Source: Blautia sp.
Lineage (GTDB): Bacteria > Bacillota > Clostridia > Lachnospirales > Lachnospiraceae
DNA length: 64,000 nt
Direction: 5' to 3'
Assembly: GCA_029257775.1 (NCBI GenBank)
Contig: JARIAQ010000007.1
Span: 1,096-65,095, forward strand
Made by a program: the position numbers and the translations under genes. Positions 37,712-40,937 of the stretch are shown piece after piece. The notes under the pieces were generated by a model that was given only the letters and a program-made list of their open reading frames with translations, was not told where the DNA came from and did not search any database. How positions within the stretch are numbered: position 1 is the stretch's first letter; each line of letters opens with the position of its first letter.

Positions 37712-38464
37712 CTATTTTTTTGTCCGATATTTTCTAAAGCTTTCCAAAATGTAAGAACGTGCTTTTTCTGCGTCTTCTTTTGGAAGGTTTTCCATGCCTT
37801 TTAAAGGGTATTCTATATTCAATTCTAAATATTTTTGTTCTCCCATATTGTGATAGGGTAAAACATCTAAACCTTTAATATTGCTATAAGAGGCAAGAAT
37901 TTTCCCAATACCTTCCAATTCCTTTTTTGACGTTGTAAAATCTTTTACAATAACATGCCGAATAATTACAGGAACTTTTGCTGTTTCAGTGGCTTTTAGA
38001 AAGTCTAAAACAGGTGAAAGAGGTTGTCCGGTTAATTTTTTATGCTCTTCTGCAATACTGTGTTTAATATCTAATAAAATCAAATTAGTATAAGAAAATA
38101 ATTTTTCATAAGAAGAAGATTGTTTTTCTTTATATAAAATCCCAGAGGTGTCAAGACAAGTGTGTATGTTTTGGGCTCTTGCAGCCTGAAATAATTCAAT
38201 AATAAAATCCAGCTGCATAAGAGGTTCTCCTCCGGTAACGGTAATGCCTCCGTTTTGATAAAAACTTTTGTTTTTTTCATAGATTTTCAAAATTTCTTCT
38301 ACAGTCATAGATTGTCCTCTTTGGGGAGCCCAAGTGTCCGGATTATGACAATAGAGGCATCGCATAGGACAGCCCTGAAGAAAGACAACAAGTCTAATTC
38401 CAGGGCCATCTACTGTGCCAAAAGTTTCAATGGAGTGTATAAATCCTGTTTTACATTCCGTCAT
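37712..38464 (-). CDS. pflA: Pyruvate formate-lyase activating enzyme (radical SAM)
   Basis: [37 protein letters not shown] and LPYH. Likely ATG at 38464 overlaps the last codons of the glycyl-radical gene (the track start 38488 is the alternative). Confidence 0.95.
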
Positions 38465-38693
38465 GGAATGTTCTTGAGATAACTTCATCCTGTTGTTCTT
38501 TTGTCAGTTTGTGGAAGTTTACTGCATATCCGGACACACGAACAGTAAGCTGAGGATATTTTTCAGGGTGTTTTTGTGCATCCAAAAGGGTTTCTTTTGT
38601 AAACACGTTGACATTTAAGTGATGTCCACCTTTTTCTGCATATCCATCTAATAAGTTTACTAAGTTATCAATTTGAGTATTACTAATGTTCAT
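38451..38693 (-). CDS. Stand-alone glycyl-radical domain protein (GrcA-like; equals the C-terminal domain of PFL)
   Basis: NLVNLLDGY...HHLNVNV...[19 protein letters not shown]...[11 protein letters not shown]; own RBS AAGGAGG 7 nt before the ATG. Confidence 0.93.
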
Positions 38694-38716
38694 TTGAATT
38701 TCCTCCTTAAAAAGTG

Positions 38717-40792
38717 TTATTGTAAGTCAATGTTTGGTTCACAGCAAGCGCAATCTGGTTCTAATTCAAAGGTGATATCATCGAAAAATACAGCATCATC
38801 TTTGCCAAGAGCACCAGGAATAATGGAGAAAGTATTAGAAATACCATCTTGAGCATCATTAAATGGAAGTTTAGAAACAGAATTTAATGATGCAACAGCG
38901 CCATGGCTGTCTCTGTGATGCATTGGGTTTGCTCCGGGAGCAAAAGCTTGTCCGGCTTTTCTTCCATCAGGTGTTGATCCTGTTGCTTTTCCATAAACAA
39001 CATTGGAAGTAATTGTAAGAATGGAAGTAGTAGGGATTCCTCCGCGGTAAGTATGATTTCCTTTAATATATTCCATAAAAGTGTGGACAATATTGTAGGC
39101 AATATCATCTACTCTGTCATCATCATTTCCGTATTTTGGAAAATCTCCTTCAATTTCATAATCTACAGCAATACCATTTTCATCTCGAATAGTTTTTACT
39201 TTTGCATATTTAATTGCGGATAGAGAGTCAGCAACAACGGAAAGTCCAGCAATACCAGTTGCAAACCAGCGTGTTACTTTTTTATCATGGAGTGCCATCT
39301 GTAATCTTTCATAAGAATATTTGTCATGCATATAATGAATGATATTTAAAGTATTTACATATACACCGGCAAGCCATTTCATCATATCCTGAAATCTGTC
39401 AATGACTTCGTCATATTCCAAATATTCAGAAGTGATTGGACGGAATTTCGGACCAACCTGCTTTTTAGATACCTCGTCAACACCGCCGTTGATAGCGTAC
39501 AATAAACATTTTGCAAGGTTTGCACGTGCACCGAAAAACTGCATTTCTTTTCCGACACGCATGGAAGATACACAGCAGGCAATAGCATAGTCATCACCAT
39601 GGGTTACACGCATTAAATCGTCATTTTCGTACTGAATAGAAGATGATGCAATAGAAGTTTTTGCACAAAAACGTTTAAAGTTTACAGGTAATTTTGTAGA
39701 CCATAATACAGTTAAGTTTGGTTCAGGAGAAGTACCTAGATTTTCCAATGTGTGCAAATAACGGAAGGACATTTTTGTTACAAGATGACGTCCATCAATA
39801 CCTATACCAGCAATGGATTCTGTTACCCAAGTAGGGTCTCCGGAAAATAGCGCATTGTACTCTGGTGTTCTTGCGAACTTAACAAGGCGTAGTTTCATAA
39901 TAAAGTGGTCAATGAATTCCTGGATTTGTTCTTCTGTAAAGGTGTTGTTCTTTAAGTCTCGTTCTGCATAGATATCAAGGAAAGTAGAAGTACGACCAAG
40001 AGACATGGCAGCACCATTTTGTTCTTTGATGGCAGCCAGATATCCCAGGTATAACCATTGGATGGCTTCCTGTACATTGGAAGCAGGACGAGAAATATCA
40101 AATCCGTAAATTTTTCCCAATTCTTTTAATTCTTTTAAAGCACGAATTTGTTCAGATAATTCTTCACGTTCTCTTGTAACATCTGAATACATAGTAGTAC
40201 GAGTTGTATTTTTTTCATTTTCTTTATCTTCAATCAGACGATCTACACCGTAAAGGGCTACACGACGATAGTCACCAATAATACGGCCTCTTCCATAAGC
40301 ATCAGGAAGTCCTGTAATAATATGACTAGAACGACATGCACGCATCTCTGGTGTGTAAGCATCGAATACTCCTGCATTATGTGTCTTGCGGTGTTTTGTA
40401 AAGAATTCAACAACTTCAGGATCTACATGATATCCATTGTCCTCGCAAGCTTTTACTGCCATACGAATTCCGCCGTAAGGTTGCAGAGAACGTTTAAATG
40501 GTTTGTCTGTCTGAAAACCTACGATAGTTTCTAAATCTTTATTTAAATATCCTGGACCATGGGAAGTGATGGTGGAAATGATTTTTGTGTCCATATCCAG
40601 TACACCACCTTTTTCTTGTTCCTGTTTTGTAAGATCCATAACTTGATTCCAGAGTGTTTCTGTTGCTTTTGTAGGACCTGCAAGAAAGGCATCATCACCA
40701 TCGTAAGGAGTATAGTTTTTTTGAATAAAGTCTCTTACATCTATTTCTTTTGTCCACTTTCCTTTGTTAAAGGAAATCCATTCTTCTCTCAT
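38717..40792 (-). CDS. pflB: Pyruvate formate-lyase catalytic subunit lacking the glycyl-radical domain
   Basis: [25 protein letters not shown] (active-site CC), [22 protein letters not shown] and [16 protein letters not shown]. Ends in [12 protein letters not shown] with no RVSGY motif. Confidence 0.95.
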
Positions 40793-40937
40793 GAATTTGA
40801 GTCCTCCTATATATTGTGGTTAGTTACATATAACTATTCTTATATAGGTGGATTTTATAATATTGGACTAAGAAAGTCAAGCTGATATTGTGTTTATAAT
40901 TTAATACAATAGAGGTAAAATAGTAATGTGGTAGATT

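Follow-up and report, generated by a model that had tools for sequence, protein, structure and literature searches.

How is pyruvate formate-lyase (PFL) put together in an organism whose PFL catalytic chain ends before the glycyl-radical loop? Pyruvate cleavage by PFL is central to many gut fermenters, and members of Blautia and other Lachnospiraceae rank with the most abundant bacteria of the human gut. The question is raised by a locus in a 64,000-nucleotide (nt) stretch of a Blautia sp. genome (assembly GCA_029257775.1, contig JARIAQ010000007.1, positions 1,096 to 65,095 of the forward strand), referred to here as the window, in which three adjoining minus-strand genes encode, in order, a PFL core (pflB), an 80-amino acid (aa) glycyl-radical open reading frame (ORF; grcA3) and the activase (pflA) (Table 1). 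This locus very probably encodes a genuine two-subunit PFL from a single pflB-core/grcA3/pflA operon, and comparative evidence strongly supports a PFL that would be obligately two-subunit.

Family profile searches assign each of the three products. The large chain scores 742 bits against Pfam PF02901 and 1107.2 bits against the PFL model TIGR01255 (cut-off 994.2) despite its absent C-terminus, spanning profile positions 2 to 669 of 744, and it harbors the catalytic Cys-Cys pair (C406/C407), which is invariant in 56/56 split-type cores. RVSGY is absent from the whole 691-aa ORF; a TIGR01255 PFL carries this motif on the same polypeptide, whereas here it sits on the separate 80-aa chain and is invariant in 21/21 diverse GrcA3 sequences. 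The Pfam Gly_radical domain is likewise divided, with the large chain matching only positions 1 to 50 and the grcA3 ORF matching positions 51 to 105. The latter belongs to NCBIfam NF038360, "autonomous glycyl radical cofactor GrcA3" (171.6 bits, cut-off 158), and scores 94 bits against the GrcA model TIGR04365 (cut-off 170), and thus is not a member of the GrcA/YfiD family. PflA exceeds the TIGR02493 cut-off (278.8 versus 231.75 bits) and harbors the radical S-adenosylmethionine (SAM) motif CxxxCxxC as CPMRCLYC.

Pairwise alignment to Escherichia coli PFL places the cut precisely. Large-chain residues 4 to 668 align to E. coli residues 10 to 680, and GrcA3 residues 9 to 79 align to residues 683 to 758, G734 included; homology thus breaks at 680 in the large chain and resumes at about 681 to 683 in the small ORF. 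The cut is clean, with homologous residues neither lost nor duplicated. What is gained at the junction is a tail of about 23 residues, a stop codon, a Shine-Dalgarno (SD) sequence and a 6-residue leader, which together place about 100 nt of extra sequence between the homologous parts, and the grcA3 reading frame differs from that of the core. The original prediction, made from the DNA letters alone, had described this architecture correctly: the ORF sequence bears out a 691-aa PflB that keeps the CC pair and lacks RVSGY, while the layout and the Gly_radical match bear out a missing domain encoded 23 nt downstream, in another frame, with its own AAGGAGG ribosome-binding site and an end that overlaps pflA. 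Its estimate of about 20 codons of new tail, and its argument that one frameshift cannot explain the junction, hold as well.

Table 1. Features of the split PFL locus, with positions counted along the window.
Feature	Position	Strand	Basis or detail
pflB core, 691-aa catalytic chain without the glycyl-radical loop	38717..40792	-	stop TAA at 38717-38719
Catalytic Cys-Cys pair C406/C407 in IACCVSSM (E. coli C418/C419)	39572..39577	-	sequence
New C-terminal tail, residues 667-691 of the pflB core	38720..38794	-	conservation across the genus and related genera
Spacer of 23 nt between pflB core and grcA3	38694-38716	-	
Shine-Dalgarno AAGGAGG for grcA3, within the spacer	38702..38708	-	8 nt 5' of the ATG (38693)
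grcA3, 80-aa free-standing glycyl-radical domain (E. coli PFL residues 681-759)	38451..38693	-	
RVSGY motif, grcA3 residues 52-56; Gly55 is the predicted radical site (E. coli G734)	38526..38540	-	
pflA activase (radical SAM); probable start is the conserved Met at 38464	37712..38464	-	TIGR02493 score
Promoter-like site TTGACT-17-TAAAAT upstream of pflB	40852..40880	-	consensus match only

The split locus is the single PFL-like gene of this genome (2.23 Mb, 99.87% complete), in which a search for a second, full-length pflB returned none; the proposal that the split form is the normal PFL of this organism is thereby upheld. The sole other Gly_radical match in the genome is weak and falls in a 720-aa frame on another contig (G000:C7:14684-14887), which is probably NrdD and looks single-chain. 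Among 34 congeners, 25 carry a stand-alone frame of 82 to 123 aa as their single PFL-type match, six carry a canonical fused PFL of 751 to 777 aa, mostly in larger genomes (3.4 to 6.2 Mb), and three genomes (76 to 93% complete) have no match; split and fused forms occur together in none of the 34. The refutation offered with the original prediction, that close relatives would reveal a fused ORF, thus fails. All 12 genus-level loci that were read retain the same order of truncated core with tail, small ORF and pflA.

Mapping of split versus fused forms beyond the genus reveals that this layout is conserved across the lineage. In a family survey of one genome per genus (Lachnospiraceae-level, 401 genera), 134 genera exceed the GrcA3 cut-off, and frames of 80 to 198 aa comprise all but four of the 150 matches listed. 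A survey of the class Clostridia (400 genomes) finds stand-alone GrcA3 copies in 11 families, and a scan of GTDB species genomes retrieves at least 583 relatives, the best 80 loci of which are all split (80/80). The record titles name Blautia, Dorea, Sellimonas, Roseburia, Lacrimispora, Hungatella and Ruminococcus, as well as Oscillospiraceae, Acutalibacteraceae, Erysipelotrichaceae, Collinsella and a Spirochaetales metagenome-assembled genome (MAG). Thus, split PFL is found in at least 10 other families of Clostridia, and in Collinsella and a spirochaete MAG. The upstream gene is included in 75 of the 80 loci and encodes a truncated core with a tail in every case (75/75). Selection was measured on 19 Blautia-type sequences, with the tail represented by its first 19 codons and with a proportion of synonymous differences (pS) of about 0.6 to 0.76; the ratio of nonsynonymous to synonymous proportions (pN/pS) reaches 0.061 in the core and 0.055 in the small ORF, against 0.135 in the tail, and all three are under purifying selection.

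These comparisons bear directly on whether the split could stem from an error of sequencing or assembly, from a recent frameshift that left a pseudogene, or from recoding that joins both ORFs into a single chain. A few relatives do have both ORFs in one frame with a single TAA between them; however, the pflB/grcA3 spacers measure between 3 and 606 nt, all three relative frames are represented among them, and each small ORF has its own SD sequence and ATG, which indicates that the two chains are translated separately. Since spacer length and frame vary freely among loci, recoding, programmed frameshifting and read-through are excluded as a general mechanism, and we rejected recoding or frameshifting on these grounds. 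The extra sequence of about 100 nt between the homologous parts and the purifying selection on the tail also argue against such an origin, as does the recovery of the same product from independent data: identical or 97%-identical 691-aa chains are found on more than 1000 independently assembled contigs, some of them labelled Blautia hansenii, which assigns the window to the Blautia hansenii group. We consider this family of explanations almost certainly wrong.

Two of the spacers are unusual in content. The 606-nt spacer of locus L085 (L085:2895-3500) contains a 124-aa ORF between inverted ATTCGGAATTCGAAATTCGGAAT-type repeats; this ORF presumably resembles the four-helix-bundle proteins of rRNA intervening sequences, and the spacer content looks like a mobile insertion. 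In locus L029 (G398:C26, 2163-2757), the frame 5' of grcA3 is open for 198 aa and harbors a tandem Gly/Arg/Ser-rich repeat (...GGLGGELRNLNQQRSGQAPEGFTDA...), which is a repeat insertion in the spacer.

If the split is real, GrcA3 could still be a mere spare part or regulator, and the truncated PflB a decaying or repurposed protein devoid of PFL activity. The NCBI family name (rad_fix, "autonomous glycyl radical cofactor") implies a repair role, and an artificial truncated E. coli PFL (tPFL) binds YfiD poorly. However, the full-length PFL on which GrcA/YfiD acts, and which GrcA3 would have to repair, was not found in the genome itself or in the 25 congeners; the core scores above its equivalog cut-off and keeps the Cys-Cys pair invariant; and the pN/pS of 0.06 and the synteny kept in hundreds of species are not those expected of decay. 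A spare-part role is very improbable on this evidence, which points to GrcA3 as an obligate subunit of the only PFL where the name of NF038360 implies a repair accessory.

In the proposed two-subunit enzyme, the barrel and the substrate sites would belong to the 691-aa α chain, as would the loop with Cys406/Cys407; the 80-aa β chain (GrcA3) would contribute a helix at each terminus, the tenth strand of the barrel and the radical loop around Gly55. This Gly55 would receive its radical from PflA while the small chain is free or once it has docked, and the small chain would then fill the socket that is held in an ordinary PFL by the covalently attached domain. Catalysis would proceed as in E. coli, in the same way that GrcA/YfiD reconstitutes O2-cleaved PFL in trans. 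We infer the assembly, the activation in trans and the activity of this two-chain PFL from the gene anatomy, the sole-PFL status and the conserved, widespread and selected layout, and from two known systems that it resembles.

The first of these is E. coli PflB with GrcA/YfiD (PDB 1H16 and 6OWR), together with phage T4 Y06I. GrcA3 is likened to these small free proteins, which carry an RVSGYAV loop, are activated by the PFL activase and complete the active site of a core that lacks its radical loop; both GrcA/YfiD and Y06I obtain their radical from the activase and restore O2-cleaved PFL (PMC13450708). GrcA3 residues 21 to 78 align to residues 68 to 125 of GrcA (6owr). The systems differ in that E. 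coli synthesizes a full-length core, and GrcA comes into play only once O2 has cleaved this core at G734, whereas the truncation described here is encoded in the gene and falls at the position that matches residue 680; furthermore, the disordered N-terminus of E. coli GrcA (about 60 residues) is absent from GrcA3, which retains the 681-695 helix. The second system is the engineered pair of tPFL(1-695) and YfiD or truncYfiD(61-127) (Andorfer et al. 2021, PMC8683613), in which a core without the glycyl-radical domain (GRD) is likewise combined with a radical domain in trans. The tPFL(1-695) and YfiD pair is poorly activated, yet reaches wild-type activity once activated (PMC8683613), and thus a GRD-less core can work with a radical domain supplied in trans. 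The engineered cut lies 15 residues downstream of the natural 680/681 cut, and the natural system has gained a conserved tail, in place of which other lineages have a third mini-protein.

Several results weigh against a two-subunit enzyme or fail to add to the case for it. E. coli PFL lacking residues 696 to 733 shows no measurable binding of YfiD, and radical installation falls 32-fold (PMC8683613); efficient docking therefore calls for determinants missing from the E. coli construct. In Blautia these would be the 681-695 helix of GrcA3 and the tail, and we infer that these two elements supply the affinity in the natural system. AlphaFold 2 (AF2) models are of moderate confidence. A read-through pseudo-fusion, built from a 97%-identical relative in which a single TAA is all that separates the two in-frame ORFs, has a mean predicted local distance difference test (pLDDT) score of 70.7, with the tail below 50, and a model of the large chain alone gives a tail below 35, which speaks neither for nor against a role of the tail as a plug. 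Comparison of the small chain with PDB entries of related cores (38la and 38lb) gave no match. The pseudo-fusion model superimposes on E. coli PFL with template modeling (TM) scores of 0.84 to 0.86, GRD included; the canonical place of the GRD in this model is expected from homology and is not independent evidence.

In every split core, GK(D/E)D is followed by a hydrophobic/acidic stretch of the type hhhxGDhxhxL, and in the window this hydrophobic/acidic core is followed by a D-C-A-C-C-E-P motif. The 75 loci that include the upstream gene fall into several tail classes. A Blautia type (20/75) ends in ...EPDCAC(C)EPN plus acidic residues, an Acutalibacteraceae/Oscillospiraceae type (29/75) conserves ...LDCxxGACxxPTLFEGLD, and five further loci have other Cys-containing tails; the tail of locus L057 (EPDCACNIPTMLFDEG) bridges the two main types. 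A short Cys-less tail accompanied by a third ORF of about 65 to 90 aa, located in a 240- to 450-nt gap before grcA3, characterizes another 15 of the 75, in lineages that include Lacrimispora and Hungatella, and the remaining six (Collinsella and others) have neither a Cys motif nor a third ORF. Examples of the third ORF are L061:3211-3444, L077:3204-3470, L071:3212-3463, L054:2700-2915 and L026:3488-3739, with 10 more loci in addition.

The third protein is partly related to GrcA3. Its first approximately 33 residues are homologous to the helix and strand of GrcA3 (hhalign probability 96.5%, E = 1e-9), and five of the six third proteins tested give weak GrcA3 matches over their first approximately 30 residues. 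It lacks RVSGY and ends in LDCxxGxxAC(R/K)VPTLFEGLD. No curated family searched matches it over its whole length, and a profile built from it collects 262 cluster representatives, almost all of 60 to 90 aa. Judged from these motifs, the tail in the window is a reduced, core-fused form of a two-cysteine module that in other lineages is borne by a copy of the radical domain devoid of RVSGY. Some lineages do without the module entirely, which makes an accessory role more likely than an essential one. Our guess is that the α-chain tail helps to recruit, retain or stand in for the β chain. A more specific and rather doubtful idea is that the tail and the free pseudo-radical-domain mini-protein act as a placeholder or latch for the radical-domain socket. 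Such a latch would maintain the fold of the GRD-less core and protect its active-site thiols until it is displaced by a GrcA3 that bears the radical, and it could plug the core again after a spent small chain leaves. If so, the PFL of these gut anaerobes would depend on a protein cofactor that can be exchanged and for which a dedicated dummy exists.

Why a split enzyme should be maintained is a separate question. A "replaceable part" that limits the cost of O2 damage is a hypothetical benefit, and other benefits or neutral fission fit the data equally well. We give slightly less than even odds to a split that is functional but kept up for reasons other than cheap repair after O2 damage. Activation might be easier or faster with a free radical domain directly open to PflA, since such a domain, unlike an attached one, need not first leave the barrel by a swinging movement; PFL activity might be controlled through the supply or turnover of the small chain; or fission might merely be tolerated. 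The hosts are strict gut anaerobes, and the split and fused forms replace one another within a single genus, which suggests near-equivalence. The six of 75 loci without any Cys module indicate that the extras are dispensable, and the gene tree described below, which hints at switching in both directions, is also in line with reasons other than repair. On the other side, GrcA in E. coli demonstrates that O2 damage is indeed repaired in trans, and the tight linkage of grcA3 to pflA fits rapid resupply of the small chain.

Maximum-likelihood trees computed on a 460-residue core place the canonical fused clade within a paraphyletic grade of split forms. In an approximately unbiased (AU) test, a tree with monophyletic split forms is not rejected (p = 0.066). 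Canonical fused PFLs without any insert are found in the six congeners and in several other Lachnospiraceae. The small chains are near-identical across different phyla, which suggests either lateral transfer or extreme constraint. Locus L022 (G189:C26, PFL frame 499-2821) encodes a fused 774-aa PFL that harbors a Cys-bearing insert (SNMLFVNDTPDVTCGCEEVTCAVDAND) exactly at the split point, and is either an intermediate toward fission or a re-fusion.

The split PFL is partly annotated and apparently unpublished, and its newness is smaller than the original prediction assumed, in that NCBI already curates GrcA3 and the PDB already holds truncated cores. RefSeq gives the name GrcA3 to homologues in Blautia, Sellimonas, Oliverpabstia and Allofournierella. 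The best matches to the large chain are PDB entries 38lb (739 aa, 1167 bits) and 38la (687 aa, 1154 bits), both titled "Formate acetyltransferase," which are truncated cores of the same kind from other species; the tail of 38lb holds ...DFTIENKPDCACA..., and 38la ends in ...LGKED. A structure library extending to April 2026 contains neither entry, so both are recent, and a literature search did not find a paper on them. Other glycyl radical enzymes, benzylsuccinate synthase (αβγ) and 4-hydroxyphenylacetate decarboxylase, are similar in having small extra subunits; these subunits are not known to carry the radical glycine. None of the literature retrieved describes a natural split PFL, including the June 2026 review of glycyl radical enzymes (PMC13450708), according to which spare-part proteins are known only for formate lyases and which treats trans-acting radical domains purely as repair parts.

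If PFL is obligately two-piece in these bacteria, the textbook single-chain picture misses a large share of the enzyme in nature. The annotation of an "autonomous glycyl radical cofactor" beside a "formate C-acetyltransferase" conceals that each product probably needs the other in order to function. A natural, detachable radical domain makes the access of the activase to a buried glycine, the docking and recognition of a spare domain, and the fate of the enzyme after exposure to oxygen open to experiment, and the split PFL is directly testable in cultured Blautia.

Finally, the organization of the three genes is compatible with a compact transcription unit. Scanning of the pflB/grcA3 junction revealed neither a promoter-like nor a terminator-like site, in keeping with transcription as one operon. 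The last 14 nt of grcA3 (ATGACGGAATGTAA) are shared with the probable start of pflA, but the predicted co-translation of the small chain with the activase is borne out only in a loose sense: the overlap is a Blautia-type feature, and in most loci elsewhere pflA starts between -14 and about +57 nt from the small-ORF stop. The probable pflA start corresponds to M9 of the longest ORF and lies inside an SM[T/K]EC motif that is kept in relatives. The longest pflA ORF begins at 38488, eight codons upstream of the conserved Met (38465-38488), and would extend the overlap with grcA3 to 38 nt; this upstream Met is not kept in relatives, and automatic annotation may thus over-extend pflA.

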